The notes beneath the pieces are model-generated. The model made no database searches and was not told the origin of the DNA. It was given only the letters and a program-made list of their open reading frames with translations. A program made the position numbers and the translations under genes. This document shows, piece after piece, positions 20,546 to 30,984 of a stretch of DNA of 64,000 nucleotides (the first letter of the stretch is position 1; each line of letters begins with the position of its first letter). Source of the stretch: Ulvibacter algarum (GTDB lineage: Bacteria > Bacteroidota > Bacteroidia > Flavobacteriales > Flavobacteriaceae); assembly GCA_947488905.1 (NCBI GenBank), contig CANLBJ010000005.1:112397-176396 (forward strand), read 5' to 3'.

Positions 20546-20791
20546 TGTATAAAATATCTTTATAGTATAATGCTTTAAATGCAGTATTATTGCGATAACC
20601 TCTATAGCTATGCAGGTTTAAAGATAAGTATAGCCTGTTTAATATTTCAGAAAATAATAATAAAATGAGGTTTTTTAAATATTTCTGAAATTTTAAAGTA
20701 ACAAAATATAGAGTGACTCGTCATCTTAATAACACAGCCAATAATCCTGTTTTGTATTCGGGCGGATGTGACACTAACCAAAACCACTGCA

Positions 20792-21313
20792 ATGGCAGAT
20801 TTAATAATGAACCAAAAAGAGTTTTTACATACGGTACTCCCTTTTAAGGACAGATTATACCGCATCGCAAAGCGTCTTTTAGTCTCTGCAGATGAAGCCG
20901 AAGACGCAGTACAAGAAGTTTTTTTAAAACTATGGCGGGGAAAACAAAATATTAAAAAGTATAGAAGCCCCGAAGCCTTTGCCATCACAATGACAAAAAA
21001 CTATTGTCTAGATAGACTAAAATCTAAACAGGCAGGAAATATGAAAATTGTGCATACTAATTATAAAACTTCAGAAAATCTGGAGAAAAAAATTGAGGCA
21101 AATGATGGAGTGGCACTTGTTTTTAAAATAATGGAAAACTTGCCAGAACAGCAAAGAATGATACTTCAGCTAAGAGACGTAGAAGAATTTGAATTTGCCG
21201 AAATAGCAAAAATGCTCGATAGTAATGAGACTGCAATAAGAGTAGGATTATCTAGAGCGAGAAAAACAGTAAGAGAACAATTAATAAAAAAGCATAATTA
21301 TGGAATCTGTTAA
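20792..21313 (+). CDS. ECF-type RNA polymerase sigma factor
   Basis: Uses the ORF-track frame. Sigma-70 regions 2 and 4 are present (AEDAVQEVFLKLW; FEFAEIAKMLDSNETAIRVGLSRARK). The track start is a GTG at 20768. I prefer the ATG at 20792, and the ATG at 20807 is also possible. Confidence 0.8.
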   Translation: MADLIMNQKEFLHTVLPFKDRLYRIAKRLLVSADEAEDAVQEVFLKLWRGKQNIKKYRSPEAFAITMTKNYCLDRLKSKQAGNMKIVHTNYKTSENLEKKIEANDGVALVFKIMENLPEQQRMILQLRDVEEFEFAEIAKMLDSNETAIRVGLSRARKTVREQLIKKHNYGIC

Positions 21314-21740
21314 TATTACTCAATTACTAGAGTCATATTTTGAAGGCGAAACAACGTTAGCCCAAGAGAAAGAATTGCGAGCATACTTTGCAAGTGACAC
21401 TATAGCTTCAGAGCACGAGTGTTATATTCCTTTATTTAAAGGAGTGCAAGTAGCAAAAGAAGAAACGATGGTTAAGTCTATCACTTTTCCGAAGCAAGAA
21501 AATAAAACTAGTAGTCGCTGGTGGCTAGGTATTGCTGCCTCTGCGGTGATTGTACTAGCGGTATCAAGTTATGTTTATAATGACACAAATGCATTAACTC
21601 AAGAAGAGCAAGAAGCTGTGATGGCCTTTAATCAAAGCAAAGAGGCATTGTTATTGTTATCTAAGAGTTTAAACAAAGGGGCAGAAGAGTTGGACTACCT
21701 TAATGAGTTTACAAACACAACTAATAAATATTTTAAATAA
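21300..21740 (+). CDS. putative anti-sigma / membrane-anchored protein of the ECF-DUF4252 operon
   Basis: ORF track. It overlaps the sigma gene by 14 nt and has a single TM helix (WWLGIAASAVIVLAVSSYVY). Confidence 0.6.
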   Translation: MESVNITQLLESYFEGETTLAQEKELRAYFASDTIASEHECYIPLFKGVQVAKEETMVKSITFPKQENKTSSRWWLGIAASAVIVLAVSSYVYNDTNALTQEEQEAVMAFNQSKEALLLLSKSLNKGAEELDYLNEFTNTTNKYFK

Positions 21741-21761
21741 ACAATTACAAAAACTATAAAT

Positions 21762-22298
21762 ATGAAAAAGATAGCAATTTTAATAGCACTATTTATCGCG
21801 CCATTAGCGATTAATGCACAAAACTTCTGGTCGTCATTTGAGAATGATGATGATGTGTCTTCTGTGGTCATTACAAAAAAGATGTTCAAACTTCTTTCTA
21901 GAATAGACTTAGATACTGATGATCAAGAAGTAAATGACTTTATGGATCTAGTAGAGAATCTAGATAATATCAAGATTTTTACTACAGATAAAACAAATAT
22001 TGCTTCAAAAATGAGCAGTTCTGTAACTAGCTATATTGGTGGAGATAAAGGGCTTTCTGAGCTTATGAGAGTTAAAGATGATGGTAACAACATTAAGTTT
22101 TATTCTCGTGAAGGAAAAAGTGAAAACTATGTAAGCGAACTTTTAATGTTCTTAGAAGGAACCGACAATGGTAAAAACCAAACAGTTGTAATGAGTATTA
22201 CTGGTAATATTGATTTGAGACAAATATCAAAGTTGACTAAGAATCTTGATATACCTGGTAGTGATGCGATTAAGCAACTAGAAAAAAAGAATAAATAA
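21762..22298 (+). CDS. DUF4252 domain protein
   Basis: ORF track. It has a signal peptide, and the ..VVITKKMFKLLSRIDL..FMDLVENLDNIKIFTT pattern is typical of DUF4252. Confidence 0.7.
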   Translation: MKKIAILIALFIAPLAINAQNFWSSFENDDDVSSVVITKKMFKLLSRIDLDTDDQEVNDFMDLVENLDNIKIFTTDKTNIASKMSSSVTSYIGGDKGLSELMRVKDDGNNIKFYSREGKSENYVSELLMFLEGTDNGKNQTVVMSITGNIDLRQISKLTKNLDIPGSDAIKQLEKKNK

Positions 22299-22834
22299 TG
22301 GTAACAATAGTAAAATATATCTCAGCAATGCTTCTAGGAAGTTTATTGTTAGTGAGTTGCAATAGCAATCCATCTCTGCAAGAGTATCTTGTAGATAAAC
22401 AAGAAGATGATGCTTTTGTAAAAGTAGATCTTGCTACAAGTCTTTTGTATGCAGAAGAAGACAAACTTACTGTAGCCCAGAAAGATGTCTTAAAGACTGT
22501 AAAAAAGATAAATGTAGTAGCATATCCATTAAAAGGTGATGATGCAGAATTTACCTTAGAACGTAAAAAGTTACAGGAGATTTTAAGTCAAGAGAAATAT
22601 CAGACTCTAACAGAAATGAAACACAAAGGGTGGAGCTTGTCTGTAAAATATATGGGTGAAGATGATGCCATAGATGAAATGATTGTTTTTGGTAGTGATA
22701 AAGAAAAGGGTTTTGCGGTTTTTAGACTTATAGGTGAAAACATGAAACCTGAAGATATGATTCGTATGCTTGAGACTATGGATAAAGACAATGTAAATTT
22801 ATCTGCACTAAAAGGTTTAGAAGGATTGTTTTAA
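22298..22834 (+). CDS. DUF4252 domain lipoprotein (second copy)
   Basis: ORF track. A TAATG overlap links it to the previous gene. It has the lipobox LLLVSC and the same family layout. Confidence 0.65.
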   Translation: MVTIVKYISAMLLGSLLLVSCNSNPSLQEYLVDKQEDDAFVKVDLATSLLYAEEDKLTVAQKDVLKTVKKINVVAYPLKGDDAEFTLERKKLQEILSQEKYQTLTEMKHKGWSLSVKYMGEDDAIDEMIVFGSDKEKGFAVFRLIGENMKPEDMIRMLETMDKDNVNLSALKGLEGLF

Positions 22835-24609: not shown

Positions 24610-25413
24610 ATGGGGCTTTTTAAAAAAAATCCATTTGGACATATTCTATTTTTAAAACTTTGGTTAATTCGTATTCTTGGGGCCTTATCTCATAGACGTT
24701 TTAAAGGTTTTAATAAACTAGAAATAGAAGGAAGCGAAATCTTACGTAATCTTCCAGATACAAATGTTCTATTTGTTTCTAATCATCAAACTTATTTTGC
24801 AGATGTTGTATCTATGTTTCACGTTTTTAACGCGAGTTTAAGCGGTAGAGAAGATAGTATAAAAAATATAGGGTATCTCTGGAGACCAAAATTGAATCTT
24901 TATTTTGTAGCTGCAAAAGAGACTATGCAATCAGGATTACTACCTAAAATTTTAGCCTATGCTGGTTCTGTAAGTATAGAGCGTACTTGGCGTGCTAAAG
25001 GTGAAGAGATAAATAGACAAGTTAAAATGAGTGATATTAGTAGTATTACTACAGCACTTAATGATGGCTGGGTTATAACTTTTCCGCAGGGAACCACAAA
25101 ACCTTGGAAACCTATAAGAAAAGGGACTGCACATATTATAAAGAAAAATAAACCAGTTGTTGTACCTATTGTTATTGACGGTTTTAGGCGCTCTTTTGAT
25201 AAAAAAGGGCTGCGTATTAAAAAGCGTGGTATTCTCCAGTCTTTTGAAATTAAACAACCTCTTGATATAGATTATGAAAACGAATCTATTGATAGTATTG
25301 TAGAAAAAATAGAATACGCAATAGAGCAACATCCATCTTTTTTAAAGGTGATACCTAAAAGCGAAATTGAGAAAGAAGAGGCTCTTAATAAAGATCGTGA
25401 GTGGAGTTACTAA
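24610..25413 (+). CDS. lysophospholipid acyltransferase family protein (PlsC-like)
   Basis: ORF track. It has an NHQTYFAD acyltransferase-type motif (the spacing is one residue longer than the classic HX4D) and an FPQGTT block. Confidence 0.6.
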   Translation: MGLFKKNPFGHILFLKLWLIRILGALSHRRFKGFNKLEIEGSEILRNLPDTNVLFVSNHQTYFADVVSMFHVFNASLSGREDSIKNIGYLWRPKLNLYFVAAKETMQSGLLPKILAYAGSVSIERTWRAKGEEINRQVKMSDISSITTALNDGWVITFPQGTTKPWKPIRKGTAHIIKKNKPVVVPIVIDGFRRSFDKKGLRIKKRGILQSFEIKQPLDIDYENESIDSIVEKIEYAIEQHPSFLKVIPKSEIEKEEALNKDREWSY

Positions 25414-25500
25414 AGCTGTCTTTAGGCAATAAGCTTTAAGCTGTATGATAATGTAATATGCATATAGTTTAGATCGTCAACTTAAAATTTAATTTTCATT

Positions 25501-25535
25501 ACAAACTACAAACTACAAACTACAAACTACAATTT
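25501..25535. repeat. heptanucleotide tandem repeat (ACAAACT) x4 plus a partial copy
   Basis: Read directly from the sequence. It abuts the stop codon (25536..25538) of the minus-strand membrane-protein gene. Confidence 0.9.
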
Positions 25536-26183
25536 CTACATTTCCATTTTTTGTAGCTCCTTATAATTCCTTTTAAGGCGTTTAAGTAAAAAACCATACA
25601 CTAGAAAGTAAAAGAGTAAGACTAATGCAAGCATAATTGCACCACCTATTATATTTAATAATAAAAACTTTTCTAAAAACAGTTCTGGTGGTATAGCATC
25701 ATATTGATGTGTGTTATGTTTTACAGCAGCAGCTAGTGCATCTCCATTAACATAGTAAAATATGTTTACTCCTATCATTAGCAATATGGTTGTACCTATA
25801 TTGTAAATAACAAAGTACTTAACAGTTTGCCTAGTTTTAAGTATGTTATTCATTAACGTACCTACAGAGTCTGTAGTTTGTATCTTTTTATGATTTTTCC
25901 AGAATAGAAAAATAAAGAAAGCAAAAACACAATAATGGATAATATTAATGACTAAAAATATAGTATCTAAGCCCATTTCTGTCACAAAATCTTGTGTAGA
26001 GTCTGGTACTAAAAATGATAAGGTAGCCCAAAATAAAAGTTCTCCAATGCTTATGTAGAAGATCCATTTTACAATAGAACTCGATTTTTTTAACAACATT
26101 TTATAAATGTCATTGAATGTCAATTTAGGAAATTTTTGCTCCTGTGATTGCCACTTTGATTTTAATAATTCTAATTCATCCAT
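25536..26183 (-). CDS. polytopic membrane protein co-transcribed with an ECF sigma factor (possible anti-sigma)
   Basis: ORF track. It starts 4 bp after the sigma gene and has about five hydrophobic helices. Confidence 0.6.
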   Translation of the reverse strand: MDELELLKSKWQSQEQKFPKLTFNDIYKMLLKKSSSIVKWIFYISIGELLFWATLSFLVPDSTQDFVTEMGLDTIFLVINIIHYCVFAFFIFLFWKNHKKIQTTDSVGTLMNNILKTRQTVKYFVIYNIGTTILLMIGVNIFYYVNGDALAAAVKHNTHQYDAIPPELFLEKFLLLNIIGGAIMLALVLLFYFLVYGFLLKRLKRNYKELQKMEM

Positions 26184-26187
26184 ACGG

Positions 26188-26682
26188 TTACGGATTTAAT
26201 ACTTTACGTAGTTTACCTTTTATTCGGTTCATCTTTACTCTTGAGTTTACCTCACTAATTCCTAATGTTTCCGAAATCTCTTTATAGTTCTTATCCTCTA
26301 AATAGAGGAACACCAGTGCCTTATCAATGTCATTTAAATCTTTAACAGCGGCATACATTAATTTTAATTGTTCTTCTATTGTATCGTCATAATCCTCAGA
26401 AGATATTTTAAAACTAACTCCTTCAAAATCTTGCGTTTGTACTCGTCTCTTTGACTTTCTGTACAATGTGATCGCAGTATTAAGCGCAACTCTATACATC
26501 CATGTGCTAAACTTACTGTCTCCTCTAAATTTAGGGTAGGCACGCCATAGCTGTATGGTGATCTCTTGAAACAGATCATTATGAGCATCCCTATCATTAG
26601 TATACAGCCTACAAATTTTGTGGACTATATTTTGGTTAGACTCAAGCTCTGTAACAAATTTATGTTCGAGTTCTTTGTTCAA
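26188..26682 (-). CDS. ECF-type RNA polymerase sigma factor
   Basis: ORF track. Region 2 (HNDLFQEITIQLWRAY) and region 4 (YKEISETLGISEVNSRVKMNRIKGKL). Confidence 0.8.
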   Translation of the reverse strand: MNKELEHKFVTELESNQNIVHKICRLYTNDRDAHNDLFQEITIQLWRAYPKFRGDSKFSTWMYRVALNTAITLYRKSKRRVQTQDFEGVSFKISSEDYDDTIEEQLKLMYAAVKDLNDIDKALVFLYLEDKNYKEISETLGISEVNSRVKMNRIKGKLRKVLNP

Positions 26683-26992
26683 TGGTTTTTTTTGCTGGTT
26701 ATCGTATAAGTAGGCATAAGTTCAATAAAGTTACAAGGGTATTCATAAATTATTTAAAAACTTTTATTTCTATCATTTGTTAGTTCTTATCACTTACTAT
26801 TTTTTAGAAAAACCTTTAAGTCATTAATATTTCAGAATTTAATATAACATTGATTATATAATAGGAGTAGCCCCTTGATTTTCACTTCGGAAATGTTAAT
26901 AATATGTTAAATTGCTACTTTGTAATGCATAGTACTGTAACAAAAAGAGCTTTCAGTCTTCTATTAAGTATAACCACAAAAACAAAACTATT

Positions 26993-27079
26993 ATGAGAAC
27001 TTTAAATACAGATCAATTAACAGAAAGAATTGCAACTTCAAAAAGCTTTGCTTGGAATGCTAAGAGAAGATTTAGATAA
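26993..27079 (+). CDS. 28-aa peptide, paralog A (MRTLNTDQLTERIATSKSFAWNAKRRFR)
   Basis: My own translation; below the track cutoff. It is one of three tandem paralogs with a conserved N-terminus (MRTL.xxQLTxR) and a conserved C-terminus (WNxKRRFR). Confidence 0.55.
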   Translation: MRTLNTDQLTERIATSKSFAWNAKRRFR

Positions 27080-27132
27080 TTAATATTCCCTAAGTTGTAA
27101 TAACCACATTCATCAATCAAAAAACATTCATT

Positions 27133-27219
27133 ATGAGAACATTAGACAGCAATCAATTAACAGCAAGAGTTGCAACAACAGCAGCACAGGTTTGGAATAC
27201 AAAGAGAAGATTTAGATAA
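27133..27219 (+). CDS. 28-aa peptide, paralog B (MRTLDSNQLTARVATTAAQVWNTKRRFR)
   Basis: My own translation. Between B and C, 9 codons differ: 5 are synonymous and 4 are conservative small-residue changes. Confidence 0.6.
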   Translation: MRTLDSNQLTARVATTAAQVWNTKRRFR

Positions 27220-27274
27220 TTAATATTTCCGAAGTTGTAATAACCACATTCATCAATCAAAAAAAACAATCATT

Positions 27275-27361
27275 ATGAGAACATTAGACAGCAATCAACT
27301 AACAGCAAGAGTATCAACAACAGTTTCACAAGTTTGGAACTCAAAAAGAAGATTTAGATAA
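27275..27361 (+). CDS. 28-aa peptide, paralog C (MRTLDSNQLTARVSTTVSQVWNSKRRFR)
   Basis: My own translation. It has the same length, frame and stop context (AGA TTT AGA TAA) as A and B. Confidence 0.6.
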   Translation: MRTLDSNQLTARVSTTVSQVWNSKRRFR

Positions 27362-27404
27362 TTAAAATCTCTACCGTATTCATCAATCAATTAAACCAAT
27401 CACC

Positions 27405-27536
27405 ATGAAAAAGAATGCAAACATAAGAATAAGAAAGTGGATAGGAGCAAAGTCATCTCAAGCTACCCTAAGTACTATAGAGCATAAGTTAAAAAAAATG
27501 CACCCGTCGTGTACCGTTTGTAAATTTGCGATGTAA
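27405..27536 (+). CDS. candidate 43-aa basic peptide with HPSCTVC motif
   Basis: My own translation: MKKNANIRIRKWIGAKSSQATLSTIEHKLKKMHPSCTVCKFAM. It is preceded by the same TTCATCAATCAA leader as peptides B and C. Confidence 0.4.
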   Translation: MKKNANIRIRKWIGAKSSQATLSTIEHKLKKMHPSCTVCKFAM

Positions 27537-27598
27537 AGAAAATTTGCAATGTAAAAGTCAAATTTTGTAATAACAGAATTCGGCTTTTGTTTTTTAGG

Positions 27599-27606
27599 TA
27601 TCTTTG
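27599..27606 (+). promoter_or_regulatory. candidate -7 box TATCTTTG
   Basis: Exact match to TAnnTTTG, 18 nt upstream of the ATG at 27624. Confidence 0.45.
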
Positions 27607-27623
27607 GCGACTAAATCTATCTT

Positions 27624-28121
27624 ATGAAAAATCTATTTTTACTTTTTGTACTAGCAACAGCAGTTCTATCTTGCAAAAACGAAACTACAAAAACAGATGT
27701 TGTTCCAGAAAAGACTGGTGTGACTATGCAAGATTTATCTTGGGTGATAGGAGATTGGACAAACATAAACACACAAACGCAATCTTATGAGCACTGGGAG
27801 AAAGCTGCAGATGGTAGTTTTGTGGGTGAGAGTATGACTATGAGACAAACAGATACTGTTTTTGCAGAGCGTATGAAAATGTATGTAGAGAATGATGCCA
27901 TACAATTATACATTGAGACAGTAGGGGATAACCCAAATCCAGTAGTTTTTACGTTAAGGCAAGATGCTGAGCATCCTTTTACTTTTGAGAACCCAAGAAA
28001 TGAGTTTCCTTCACAAATAGTTTATACTAATCCAGAGGCAAATACTATACATGCGTGGGTTGCAGGTTTTATTGATGAGGTTCCGCAAAAAACAGATTTC
28101 TATTTTAAGAGAGCAGAATAA
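27624..28121 (+). CDS. lipoprotein, DUF6265-like
   Basis: ORF track. Lipobox AVLSCKN. The GDW...FENPRNEFPSQIVY pattern matches that family as I recall it. Confidence 0.6.
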   Translation: MKNLFLLFVLATAVLSCKNETTKTDVVPEKTGVTMQDLSWVIGDWTNINTQTQSYEHWEKAADGSFVGESMTMRQTDTVFAERMKMYVENDAIQLYIETVGDNPNPVVFTLRQDAEHPFTFENPRNEFPSQIVYTNPEANTIHAWVAGFIDEVPQKTDFYFKRAE

Positions 28122-28412
28122 TTACCTATTCTCAGGTAGCACATTTCTATTTTTATTTAATTTTTTCTGAAATGCCACTGGGTCAATCGGTTTATACACG
28201 ATGACGTTTGAGGCTGGGTTTTGCAGTAATTCTTCTTTAGGTCTTATGGGTCTTGGCAAAAAGTTGCCGCCACAATTGGGGCAGACATTGCTCAGTACAT
28301 TTTCTACACAGTCACTACAAAAAGTGCATTCATAACTACAAATCATTGCCTCAATAGATGTTGGCAAAAGGGCTTTATTGCAATTTTCGCAAGTAGGTCT
28401 CAGTTCTAGCAT
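28122..28412 (-). CDS. DUF1272 zinc-ribbon protein
   Basis: ORF track. MLELRPTCENCNK...CSYECTFCSDC...CPNCGG has four CxxC-type pairs typical of DUF1272. Confidence 0.7.
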   Translation of the reverse strand: MLELRPTCENCNKALLPTSIEAMICSYECTFCSDCVENVLSNVCPNCGGNFLPRPIRPKEELLQNPASNVIVYKPIDPVAFQKKLNKNRNVLPENR

Positions 28413-28545
28413 GTAAATGTTTTTGTGGTGTTTTAAAGTATTGTTTTTTAAACAGTTACTAATGTTTTAATGAGTAAGTGTAACAATAACAGTAGTTACT
28501 TGTCTGTTACATATAACAATCAATCATCAATCAAAAAAATCAATC

Positions 28546-30984
28546 ATGAAATTAACCACTTCACTAGTACTCCTGTTTTCCATTTGTCTTCAATTTACGA
28601 CAAATGCACAAGAAAAAAAATCACTTAATATAACGCGCACAGATAATGCACCTAAAATAGATGGTGTACTAGATGATGCTGTATGGCAGAGCGCAGAAGA
28701 GGCTGTGTCTTTTACAGAGTTTAGGCCAGACTTGGGCGAACTAGAGACAGAAGCAAATAAAACAATAGTAAAAATGACTTATGACGATACGGCGTTATAT
28801 GTATCGGCCTTTTTAAAAGATGACCCAAGCTTAATTATGAAGCAGCTTGCTTCTCGTGATAATTTTGGGAATGCAGACTTTTTTGGGTTTGTTGTTAACC
28901 CTAACAATGATGGTCAAAACGATACAGAGTTTTTTGTATTTGCTTCTGGTACACAAGCAGATGCTATTGCAAATTTATCTGTTGGTGAAGACTTTAGCTG
29001 GAATGCTGTATGGGATAGTGCCGTAAAAATTAACGAAGATGGATGGAGTCTAGAAATGAAAATACCTTACAGATGTTTACGTTTTGATACTACTAATATA
29101 GAAGATTGGGGTATCCAGTTTCATAGAAGGTTTAAAAGAGATGAATCACAATATGCTTGGAACCCCATAAACCCTAATCAAGGAAACATAGCGCAATACC
29201 ATGGTAACTTAAGTGGTATCACTAATCTTAAGCCACCTGTAAGATTAGCTTTTTATCCATTTGTCTCTGCTGTAAGTAATAGTTTTGATGGTGATAATGA
29301 AACCAACTTTAATGCTGGGATGGATTTGAAATACGGGATAACAGAAAACTTTACACTAGACGCTACTTTAATTCCAGATTTTAGTCAAGCAGGTTTTGAT
29401 GATGTTTCTATAAACCTAGGTCCTTTTGAGCAAACTTTTTCTGAACAACGTCAGTTTTTTACAGAAGGTGTAGATCTTTTTAGTAAAGCAAATTTATTCT
29501 TTTCTCGTAGAGTAGGAGGTAGACCTAGAGTGGATCCTGTTATTTCAGAAAATGAAGAAATAACAGATTACCCAGACAAAACCAAGGTTTTAAATGCCAT
29601 TAAAATTTCTGGAAGAACTAAAGATGGGCTTGGTTTAGGTGTTTTTAATTCTTTTACAGAACAAACAAGTGCGACCATAAAAGATATTCTAGACGGCACT
29701 GTAAGAGAAGAAGTGGTATCGCCTTTTACTAATTATAACATTCTGGTAGCAGACCAGCAGTTTAATGGTAACTCTTCTGTAGGTATTATTAATACTAATA
29801 CACTGCGAGAAGGTAGTTTTAGAGATGCAAATGTGACGGCCTTAACGGCAAACATTAATAATAAACGTAATACTTATAATGTAAGAGGAGAACTAAAGTC
29901 TAGTACACTATTTGAAGAAGATGGCAATACTACTGGGTTTAGTTCATTTTTCTTAATACAAAAGACACATGGTAAATTAAGGTATAGTTTTGATCATAGT
30001 TTTGCAGATAAGAAATATGACATTAATGACCTTGGGTTAATATTTATAAATAATTATAACAACTTTGGTGTAGATGCTGGTTATCGCATTTTAGAACCTA
30101 CAGAGCGATGGAATAATTATTATATAAATACCTATGTTAATTACACACGGTTAGCAAACCCAAGTACATTTACTGGTTTTGGTTTAGGCGGAAATTTTAA
30201 TGGAACCACAAAGAAGTTAAACAATATGGGGTTCAATCTTAATTTACAGCCAGGAGATCAACACGATTATTTTGAACCCAGACGTGCAGGTAGTTTTTTT
30301 ACTACAAAGAATGGTGTTAATACAAATGGTTGGTATAATACAAATGATAATAAAATGATTGCTTTAAGTGCAAACGTAGGAGCAGAGACCTATCTTGATA
30401 AAGATAGAGATTATGCAAATTACTGGTTTGGGTTTGGTCCTAGGGTGCGAGTGTCAGATAAATTTGTATTGTCTTATTATTTTGATAGAGAGTATTATAC
30501 AGGAGATAGAGGTTATGTAAGTCAAACTGATGATTTTGTTATTTTTGGAGACAGACAGCGCATAGAAAATGAACATTCTTTTAACGCTAACTATAATTTT
30601 AACCCAAACAATACATTAGCATTAACAGTGCGTAACTATTGGGCAACAGTAGATTATGATAGAGAATTTTTTATTCTTCAAGAAGACGGTAGTACAGAAA
30701 AGACAGGTTTTGACACAGAAGATTTAGAGTATAACCCAGACATTAATTTTAATACTTGGAATCTTGATTTAAGTTATTCTTGGCAGTTTGCACCCGGTAG
30801 TTTTTTAACAGCATTATATCGCAATGGCTTAGCTAGTAGAGATCAAGCAGCACAAGATTCTTACTTTAAAAGTGTAGGTAATCTATTTGATCAACCTATA
30901 AATCATGTGCTATCTATTAAGCTACAATATTTCTTAGATTATAACCAGATACCAGCTTTATTAAAAGGAAAGAAGGTTAGATAG
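28546..30984 (+). CDS. DUF5916 / carbohydrate-binding family 9-like outer-membrane protein
   Basis: ORF track. It has a signal peptide, an N-terminal DGVLDDAVWQSAE block (CBM9-like), and a long beta-rich C-terminal region. Confidence 0.65.
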   Translation: MKLTTSLVLLFSICLQFTTNAQEKKSLNITRTDNAPKIDGVLDDAVWQSAEEAVSFTEFRPDLGELETEANKTIVKMTYDDTALYVSAFLKDDPSLIMKQLASRDNFGNADFFGFVVNPNNDGQNDTEFFVFASGTQADAIANLSVGEDFSWNAVWDSAVKINEDGWSLEMKIPYRCLRFDTTNIEDWGIQFHRRFKRDESQYAWNPINPNQGNIAQYHGNLSGITNLKPPVRLAFYPFVSAVSNSFDGDNETNFNAGMDLKYGITENFTLDATLIPDFSQAGFDDVSINLGPFEQTFSEQRQFFTEGVDLFSKANLFFSRRVGGRPRVDPVISENEEITDYPDKTKVLNAIKISGRTKDGLGLGVFNSFTEQTSATIKDILDGTVREEVVSPFTNYNILVADQQFNGNSSVGIINTNTLREGSFRDANVTALTANINNKRNTYNVRGELKSSTLFEEDGNTTGFSSFFLIQKTHGKLRYSFDHSFADKKYDINDLGLIFINNYNNFGVDAGYRILEPTERWNNYYINTYVNYTRLANPSTFTGFGLGGNFNGTTKKLNNMGFNLNLQPGDQHDYFEPRRAGSFFTTKNGVNTNGWYNTNDNKMIALSANVGAETYLDKDRDYANYWFGFGPRVRVSDKFVLSYYFDREYYTGDRGYVSQTDDFVIFGDRQRIENEHSFNANYNFNPNNTLALTVRNYWATVDYDREFFILQEDGSTEKTGFDTEDLEYNPDINFNTWNLDLSYSWQFAPGSFLTALYRNGLASRDQAAQDSYFKSVGNLFDQPINHVLSIKLQYFLDYNQIPALLKGKKVR

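Follow-up and report, generated by a model that had tools for sequence, protein, structure and literature searches.

The subject of this study is a tandem array of three open reading frames (ORFs) of 28 codons, here called genes A, B and C, in a 64,000-nucleotide stretch of contig CANLBJ010000005.1 from Ulvibacter algarum (Flavobacteriaceae), referred to below as the window. ORFs from 20 amino acids (aa) upward were listed for the region 26500-27900. All three genes were recovered, each running from ATG to TAA over exactly 28 codons, with start positions and peptides exactly as quoted in an earlier note that had been made from the letters alone. The repeat unit of about 141 bp described in that note corresponds to a period of 140-142 bp in Tandem Repeats Finder (2.2-2.7 copies, 85-90% matches). 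Codon-by-codon comparison of genes B and C reproduced the earlier count of nine differing codons, five synonymous (TTA/CTA, GTT/GTA, CAG/CAA, AAT/AAC and AAG/AAA) and four non-synonymous, and genes A and B were found to differ in 13 codons, 2 synonymous and 11 non-synonymous, mostly at residues 5-7 and 11-20. As had been expected, none of the three ORFs was called by any gene caller in the source genome. The exact peptides were absent from a collection of 15 billion proteins, and a concatenated 84-aa query of the three gave no match in a protein search. The analyses described below indicate that the ORFs are protein-coding and that their products belong to a previously undescribed, widely conserved microprotein family.

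The 28-codon genes and their family

A back-translated pattern was used to scan one genome per GTDB species, which gave 172 candidate stretches, and 154 of them were confirmed by tblastn to encode a relative. Homologous small ORFs with a preserved frame, for which the earlier note had proposed to look, are thus found in related genomes of Flavobacteriaceae. The best 79 loci were fetched for comparison; loci are designated by L and a number where they must be told apart. The fetched loci span more than 20 genera of Flavobacteriaceae, among them Ulvibacter, Patiriisocius, Jejudonia, Altibacter, Aequorivita, Winogradskyella, Zunongwangia, Aestuariivivens, Yeosuana, Psychroflexus, Aquimarina, Hyunsoonleella, Algibacter, Lacinutrix, Flavivirga, Bizionia, Gaetbulibacter, Jejuia, Tamlana and Hanstruepera, and so far the peptides are known only from Flavobacteriaceae. 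One array (L069) lies on a contig of a metagenome-assembled genome labelled 'uncultured Alteromonas sp.', all other matches being from Flavobacteriaceae/Bacteroidota; faulty binning or labelling is a more probable cause than gene transfer. A phage origin was also considered, and a scan of viral contigs with the C-terminal DNA pattern gave nine matches, all of them by chance, so that nothing points to such an origin.

Loci were found by peptide similarity, and additional copies within them by a regular expression fixing MRTL and WNxKRR. Among the 145 copies in the examined loci, 115 are 28 aa long, 21 are 29 aa, 8 are 33 aa and one is 35 aa. One copy is present in 25 loci, two in 46, three in 8 and four in a single locus, all on the same strand, with an intra-array spacing of 115-180 nt. 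The family consensus is M-R-T-L-[ND]-[ST]-N-Q-[LI]-[TS]-x-[RKT]-x-x-x-[ST]-K-x-[YF]-x-W-N-x-K-R-R-[YF]-[RK]. The sole 35-aa member seen (L089, at 5848) carries a seven-residue insertion (MRTLDSNPAYQQAWQLSKRT...), and in L044 and L062 a degenerate second copy ends in KRRCK.

When 1.84 billion representative proteins were searched exhaustively with HMMER, 54 clusters matched, which consist of proteins of 28-33 aa or of N-terminally over-extended gene calls with the 28-aa unit at the C-terminus; one longer match was a low-complexity false positive, and no true domain fusion was found. JGI, ENA and Logan are the only sources of these members, which are unnamed or called 'hypothetical protein', and no NCBI or UniRef record of the family was found. 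The family is missing from genome annotation because most gene callers do not reach down to a gene length of 87 nt. Neither the window peptides nor the family consensus matched a Pfam (E <= 1) or NCBIfam family, no Rfam or PDB match was obtained, and a full-text literature search for the peptide motifs and the promoter motif returned nothing relevant, so that the failure to recognise the peptides in the earlier note is borne out.

Stand-alone paralogs of 33 aa were observed in several genomes (L025 at ~6001, L027 at ~6001, L042, L060 and L063; also L081 and L094). They are monocistronic, end in ...KRLSTN or ...RTLSTP, with C-terminal extensions RLSTN, TLSTP and TIKTY, and in all of them a terminator follows directly after the stop codon. 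In at least two, the promoter block of the arrays described below is replaced by a canonical primary-sigma promoter, TAnnTTTG. Judged from this layout, the 33-aa paralog is a complete minimal gene.

Coding potential was assessed with 141 distinct nucleotide sequences of the family. Pooled pN/pS was 0.385 in the ORF frame as against 1.52 and 1.18 in the shifted frames, with a median pairwise dS of ~1.0 and a median dN of 0.29, and mean site entropy at codon positions 1, 2 and 3 was 0.69, 0.65 and 1.04. The ORF frame is open in every copy, whereas the other five frames are open in 0-25%. All six arginine codons are used at the invariant Arg26 (CGT 75, AGA 26, CGC 21, CGA 8, AGG 8, CGG 3), and only selection on the amino acid explains this mixture of codon families. 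The start context points the same way: adenine stands at -3 in 95% of the 145 copies and at -11 to -13 in 92-97%, and there is almost no G in the last 20 nt before the start codons. Ribosome profiling and reporter assays in Flavobacterium johnsoniae identified A at -3, -6, -12 and -13 as positive determinants (PMC6847099), by which measure the start context of the family is near-optimal for Bacteroidota.

The opposite possibility, that the product is RNA, either tandem small RNAs (sRNAs) or an mRNA of dual function, with its CAUCAAUCAA leaders serving as seeds or protein-binding sites and its ORFs being incidental, could draw on a leader element, CATCAATCAA, that is specific to the array operon and the leader of a nearby DUF5916 gene, and on the existence of tandem stress-induced sRNAs elsewhere, such as CcsR1-4 and Qrr. 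We consider it scarcely probable, since the substitutions are frame-specific, Arg codons of both families replace one another and no copy has an interrupted frame, and no conserved structure or Rfam match was found; a second role of the transcript beside its coding one is conceivable. RNAalifold predicted 0 base pairs for 27 diverse units, the 596-nt window transcript folds less stably than shuffled sequences (z = +1.22), and the region 25000-29000 gave a single chance-level Rfam match (a snoRNA model, E = 7.2, outside the array) and no Flavo-1 RNA. A structured RNA was rejected on these grounds. The three ORFs are, on the evidence of their substitution patterns and start contexts, genuine protein-coding genes under purifying selection, as the earlier note had argued from the B/C comparison; the dN/dS analysis that it had proposed finds that selection in the ORF frame only. 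Table 1 lists the features of the window.

Table 1. Features of the window bearing on the array; motifs and functions are assigned from sequence.
Feature	Position	Strand	Description	Source
Gene A	26993-27079	+	28 aa, MRTLNTDQLTERIATSKSFAWNAKRRFR	ORF listing, codon comparison, family alignment
Gene B	27133-27219	+	28 aa, MRTLDSNQLTARVATTAAQVWNTKRRFR	ORF listing, codon comparison, family alignment
Gene C	27275-27361	+	28 aa, MRTLDSNQLTARVSTTVSQVWNSKRRFR	ORF listing, codon comparison, family alignment
Upstream block	26894-26923	+	TGTTAA direct repeats 26894-26899 and 26905-26910 (11-nt period), TACTTTGT 26916-26923	
ECF-type promoter	26936-26974	+	-35 TGTAAC 26936-26941, 16-nt spacer, -10 CTTCT 26958-26962	
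CATCAATCAA leader elements	27111-27120, 27251-27260, 27381-27390	+	before gene B, gene C and ORF2	
ORF2	27405-27536	+	43 aa (MKKNANIRIRKW...CTVCKFAM), last cistron, CxxC	ORF listing
Putative intrinsic terminator	27555-27595	+	13-bp imperfect stem (27555-27567 with 27574-27586), then T-run	
Candidate cognate ECF operon	20697-22834	+		matrix, Pfam, NCBIfam
Autoregulatory-looking promoter of that operon	20697-20723	+	aGTAAC-N16-CGTCA	
Second ECF sigma	20807-21313	+	GFO_1088/PG0214 family	
Putative anti-sigma	21300-21740	+	146-aa ORF, no family match	
Two DUF4252 proteins	21762-22298, 22298-22834	+	GFO_1090 and GFO_1091 families	
DUF5916 promoter and leader	28479-28534	+	TGTAAC-N16-TGTCT-N5-ATATAAC plus CATCAATCAA; gene 28546-30984	
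Adjacent ECF sigma	26188-26682	-	start 310 bp from first array ATG	Pfam
Polytopic membrane protein	25536-26183	-	215 aa, partner of adjacent ECF sigma	

Promoter block and organisation of the unit

A block of ~90 nt, ending 28-35 nt before the ATG, is near-universal 5' of the first copy, with the consensus GTTAA..GTTAAaT..TACTTTGt..CATAGTAC-TGTAACA-N15-gtCGTCTaT-N3-gTATAA. Of 79 arrays, 67 have TGTAAC-N16-CGTCT in front of them, all but one of the 67 (66) with a spacer of exactly 16 nt. Elsewhere in 862 kb, on both strands, the motif occurs seven times, five times before MRTL ORFs that the regular expression had missed and twice in chance-like positions. A -35 element with AAC, a fixed spacer and a -10 element with CGT are the signature of promoters read by sigma factors of the extracytoplasmic function (ECF) type, in flavobacteria as well (PMC9723704). 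The array promoters carry AAC at -35, CGT at -10 and a spacer within ~16-17 nt, and by this pattern the array promoter is of the ECF sigma type. The promoter in the window departs from the pattern at one -10 position, CTTCT standing for CGTCT, a G-to-T change that recurs in L020 and L031, the closest relatives of the window. GTATAAC at 26968-26974 lies near the predicted transcription start.

Further upstream, the positions of the repeat-containing block are at least 80% conserved in 71 promoter blocks from different genomes. TACTTTGT fits TAnnTTGY, a Bacteroidota variant of the -7 box described (as SM5) in F. psychrophilum (PMC9723704). This block may be a second promoter or a regulator-binding site, and the TGTTAA repeats could represent the -33 region of that upstream box or, again, a regulator-binding site.

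Every cistron has an unstructured, A/C-rich leader of its own, and the G-poor leaders of the internal cistrons contain CATCAATCAA. Exact copies of this element number four in the 64 kb, three in the array and one before the DUF5916 gene, and 59 of 66 copies in the other loci lie inside arrays. In L045, L071, L080 and L092 the CAATCAA leader element is expanded to microsatellite-like runs such as (ATCA)n or (AAATCAATC)n, from which it follows that leader length varies by slippage.

The last cistron is a longer ORF, ORF2, which had been noticed earlier as a CxxC mini-ORF downstream of the repeats. Its presence is upheld, and the CxxC motif proved not to be conserved across loci. An ORF of at least 36 aa follows the array in 59 of 80 loci, mostly of 43-45 aa (43-48 aa in most genomes), with a good start context and no Pfam or NCBIfam match. 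It evolves fast, the pN/pS of 0.65-0.78 in frame as against 0.87-1.0 in shifted frames being a weak purifying signal; what is kept is its place and length, the initial M-K and a C-terminal pattern resembling [WF]-x-G-x-K-R-Y-x-H. A direct repeat, TTTGCGATGTAAAG / TTTGCAATGTAAAAG, was observed at 27520-27552, overlapping the end of ORF2 and preceding the terminator. In the window the terminator closes the unit before a lipoprotein gene at 27624, and a hairpin with a T-run occupies the same position in 63 of 80 loci. From these features the unit is read as a self-contained operon comprising the promoter block, one to four microprotein cistrons, ORF2 and the terminator.

A second hairpin was seen in part of the sample. 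In L078 and L085 the end of the final 28-aa gene, including its stop codon (AGACGYTACAGATAA), can form a stem with GTAGCGTCT further downstream, after which comes a T-run, and similar last-gene hairpins occur in L070, L072, L076, L080, L086, L088 and L091, within a Winogradskyella/Gaetbulibacter-like clade. This hairpin may be an attenuator between the peptides and ORF2.

Its overlap with the last peptide's stop is among the features that would suit cis-acting leader or arrest peptides in the style of TnaC and SpeFL, in which stalling at W-N-x-K-R-R-F-R-stop would control ORF2 or a downstream gene. Like TnaC and SpeFL, the array peptides are short and constant in length and have a conserved Trp and basic residues right before the stop, and each copy is followed by another cistron. 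Unlike those systems, the array has no regulated structural gene downstream: a terminator closes the unit behind ORF2, and what lies beyond is clade-dependent and often convergent. The copies are in tandem, and to our knowledge there is no precedent for a sensor peptide repeated in this way. In the monocistronic 33-aa paralogs the terminator comes right behind the stop codon, and the N-terminus is conserved as strongly as the C-terminus. We see a slim chance for control by stalling.

Candidate sigma factors and the neighbourhood of the array

A promoter weight matrix was built from 68 array promoters of other genomes, and 127,910 window positions were scored with it. The array promoter ranked first with 40.8 bits, followed by a site at 28476 just upstream of the DUF5916 gene (12.6 bits) and a site at 20694 (5.4 bits) upstream of a second ECF sigma gene, which lies 5.7 kb upstream of the array. 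The product of the latter gene matches the model NF058625 ('GFO_1088 family ECF-type sigma factor', sigma_PG0214) with 229.8 bits at a cutoff of 130, is ~80% identical across genera, and heads a candidate operon with a putative anti-sigma factor and two DUF4252 proteins (Table 1). In the orthologous sigma loci of Altibacter, Aequorivita capsosiphonis, Jejudonia and Pukyongia (L097-L100), the top hit of each 5.5-kb locus again lies upstream of the sigma gene, as TGTAACAAAA-N12-TCGTC located 60-90 nt 5' of it, with scores of 13.9, 15.7, 9.3 and -0.8 bits, respectively. ECF sigma genes are usually autoregulated, and since the promoters of the arrays and of the second sigma gene are alike, we infer that the arrays belong to the regulon of the GFO_1088-family sigma. 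A site of the array type, as autoregulation by the cognate factor would imply, was found before the GFO_1088-family gene and not before the adjacent sigma gene. The array promoter would accordingly be read by the GFO_1088/PG0214-family sigma, so that the more distant gene, at 5.7 kb, probably encodes the cognate factor and the adjacent gene does not.

The same matrix bears on the DUF5916/CBM9 outer-membrane protein gene. Its promoter-like site in the window has an equivalent in L020 (7321-7390); across the two the pattern is TGTAAC-N16-TGTCT or GGTCT and then N5-RTATAAC, and the L020 site, at 19.0 bits, is the best non-array match in 862 kb. Together with the CATCAATCAA copy in the window leader, this suggests that the DUF5916 protein is probably co-regulated with the array.

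The earlier note had proposed a partnership of the peptides with the divergent ECF sigma and membrane protein next to the array. The flanks as such were confirmed by Pfam: the pair lies at the distance described, and downstream of the array stand the 43-aa CxxC ORF, a DUF6265 lipoprotein, a DUF1272 protein and the DUF5916 protein. The adjacent sigma gene starts with TTG, and its 215-aa partner has no Pfam family and more than 3,400 homologs. Control of the array by this sigma and its partner could be argued from their adjacency in the window, L020 and L031 and from the likeness of the two promoters. The sigma gene's own promoter-like element (26683-26740, minus strand), TGTAAC-N16-CTACT or ACACT-N5-GATAACC, has the -35 and the geometry of the array promoter, including RWTAAC 5 nt past the -10, and the array -10 of this clade, CTTCT, is nearer to its CTACT. 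This element is conserved in L014-L017, L020 and L031, with a -10 unlike that of the array promoter.

Synteny, tested via homologs of the 215-aa membrane protein as the earlier note had suggested, speaks against such control. The pair adjoins an array in the window, L020 and L031 only. Ulvibacter sp. MAR_2010_11, Altibacter lentus and Aequorivita sublithincola keep the pair and its downstream genes but have an NDH-2 gene in the array's place, and the arrays of these three genera lie elsewhere, e.g. L023 on the same Altibacter scaffold. The adjacent sigma's promoter is not among the top array-matrix hits in the window, L014, L015 or L017, and in L031 its -10 is ACACT while the array keeps CTTCT, so that the two do not co-vary. 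We rate control by the adjacent pair as decidedly unlikely; the adjacent ECF sigma is probably a bystander, and the proposed partnership is not supported.

No conserved partner gene emerged either: among 828 neighbouring ORFs there was no universal cluster, contexts are clade-specific, and the most frequent neighbours are housekeeping genes of an ordinary kind or unknown ones. Recurrent neighbours include an unknown secreted 222-aa protein, ExbD, DUF1456, DedA/VTT, MFS, DEAD-box helicases and Usp. Neither ribosomal genes nor a recurring modifying enzyme, protease, exporter or immunity gene was found in array neighbourhoods.

Peptide properties, proposed role and known systems

The peptides are hydrophilic and strongly basic, with a median pI of 11.6 and a median net charge of +6 across the family. 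Mean hydrophobicity is -0.50, with 21% hydrophobic residues, and with a mean hydrophobic moment of 0.11 (z = -0.84 against shuffles) an amphipathic membrane-binding helix was rejected. No signal peptide, hydrophobic segment, GG leader, or Cys or His pattern was found in the peptides, and a type I toxin was rejected for want of a hydrophobic transmembrane segment. Given the lack of a signal peptide, hydrophobic segment and amphipathic moment, the peptides should be soluble and cytoplasmic. AlphaFold2 (AF2) predicts a single helix (pLDDT 73.5), which, coming from a 3-sequence alignment, adds little.

An exported cationic peptide, i.e. a bacteriocin, antimicrobial or signalling peptide or the precursor of a ribosomally synthesised and post-translationally modified peptide (RiPP), would agree with short cationic sequences containing Trp and Arg and with multi-copy paralogs differing in the middle. 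It is very unlikely in our view, given that selection is purifying overall, not diversifying, and that none of the neighbourhood types has a conserved transporter, immunity gene or modifying enzyme. Neither a conserved enzyme, protease or ABC exporter nor a GG motif or Cys pattern was present, and a RiPP or bacteriocin precursor was rejected. The earlier note had likewise reported no signal peptide, hydrophobic stretch, GG leader, maturation enzyme or exporter, and these absences extend to the family and its neighbourhoods.

Taken together, the results are consistent with the following scheme. Under stress, the GFO_1088-family sigma would induce the array, and probably the DUF5916 outer-membrane protein too. 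Tandem genes, near-optimal initiation and a constitutive paralog in some lineages suggest that much peptide is needed quickly, and tandem amplification, the strong start context and the peptide chemistry point to fast synthesis in large amounts. The peptide, soluble and cytoplasmic, would act in stoichiometric fashion on some abundant polyanion, for which RNA or the ribosome is the most plausible candidate. Binding would be through the invariant aromatic and basic tail, W-N-x-K-R-R-[YF]-[RK], and specificity would come from the invariant N-terminus. The molecular target remains speculative. The scheme as a whole, a coding operon in the GFO_1088-sigma regulon that yields a stress-induced basic effector, stands in our judgement at about an even chance of being correct.

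Several points weigh against this scheme. With CTTCT as its -10, the window promoter is less certain to be recognised by the proposed sigma. Transcription could start, instead or in addition, from the TAnnTTGY box, in which case the ECF-like motif would lie in the 5' leader. Many ECF groups share AAC/CGTC-like promoters, so that promoter similarity is no proof of which sigma acts. The invariance at MRTL and WNxKRR arises partly by construction from the search pattern, which leaves the frame-shift control and the synonymous switching unaffected. Finally, no PDB chain matched at E <= 10, and the PDB should include published Bacteroidota ribosomes.

A different role for the same operon would be that of a feedback modulator, in which the microproteins bind the sigma, the anti-sigma or RNA polymerase as a mini anti-sigma or anti-anti-sigma factor. 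An ECF-type promoter common to the array and the sigma operon would agree with this, as would the existence of small ECF sigma partners such as NepR and the single helix predicted with moderate confidence. It seems unlikely to us, because up to four copies and constitutive 33-aa paralogs suggest a dose above what a regulator of a scarce sigma needs, and the peptides are so far restricted to Flavobacteriaceae, whereas the sigma family model is named after PG0214 of P. gingivalis. We return to the stress-induced effector as our preferred interpretation.

A bolder form of this interpretation is put forward as an outside chance. In it, the microproteins would be the protein counterpart of sigma-E-dependent sRNAs and the Flavobacteriaceae effector arm of a conserved Bacteroidota ECF envelope/oxidative-stress response. 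Made in bulk, they would bind ribosomes or specific CA-rich mRNA leaders (possibly their own CAUCAAUCAA leaders and the DUF5916 leader) and reprogram translation in a phylum without Shine-Dalgarno-based initiation and Hfq.

The 28-aa family is among the most constrained short elements in the genomes that carry it. Because the promoter is sharply defined, induction conditions should be easy to find, and cultured hosts include Altibacter lentus, Aequorivita spp., Winogradskyella, Ulvibacter litoralis and Patiriisocius. The family offers an entry to the regulon of the PG0214/GFO_1088 ECF sigma, which reaches to the pathogen Porphyromonas gingivalis, and a test case for the action of very small basic proteins in Bacteroidota, where translation initiation and RNA regulation are unlike those of model bacteria. 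The ECF promoter with its leader could also serve as a portable cassette for expression tools in marine Flavobacteriaceae.

Known systems to compare include the PG0214/GFO_1088 sigma operon. The homologous PG0214-0218 cluster of P. gingivalis responds to H2O2 and NO stress (PMC10101095, PMC11018363). The promoter of the sigma operon has the same -35, spacer and -10 architecture as the array in five genera; unlike the operon's own genes, the microprotein genes lie outside it and are not reported as regulon members.

Small ribosomal and ribosome-associated proteins (bL36, bL34, bS22, bTHX, E. coli SRA and Bacteroidia bL38) resemble the peptides in size, extreme pI and conservation, and in the presence of constitutive and inducible paralogs in some lineages; neither a PDB match nor ribosomal genes nearby link the peptides to this class. 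They are not bL38, a protein of 5.6 kDa encoded in the bL28-bL33 operon.

Arg-rich small proteins with DUF1127 and the ccaF1-CcsR1-4 locus of Rhodobacter form another point of comparison. Like the array peptides these proteins are small and Arg-rich with a conserved Trp, are associated with tandem units in a single transcript under an alternative stress sigma, and have a proposed RNA-related function. They differ in length (~45-70 aa as against 28 aa) and phylum, and the repeated units are sRNAs there and ORFs here; DUF1127 (PF06568) gave no Pfam match at E <= 1 with the window peptides or the family consensus.

MicA, RybB and MicL are sigma-E-dependent sRNAs of Enterobacteria. As with the array, their products are very small and non-enzymatic, and each is an independent unit that ends in a terminator; their ECF-type promoters are among the best conserved in an envelope-stress regulon. 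The likeness would be one of function alone: they are non-coding Hfq-dependent RNAs, and the array yields translated 28-aa tandem peptides. Small proteins controlled by a stress sigma are known as a kind, and the 28-aa family is new within it.

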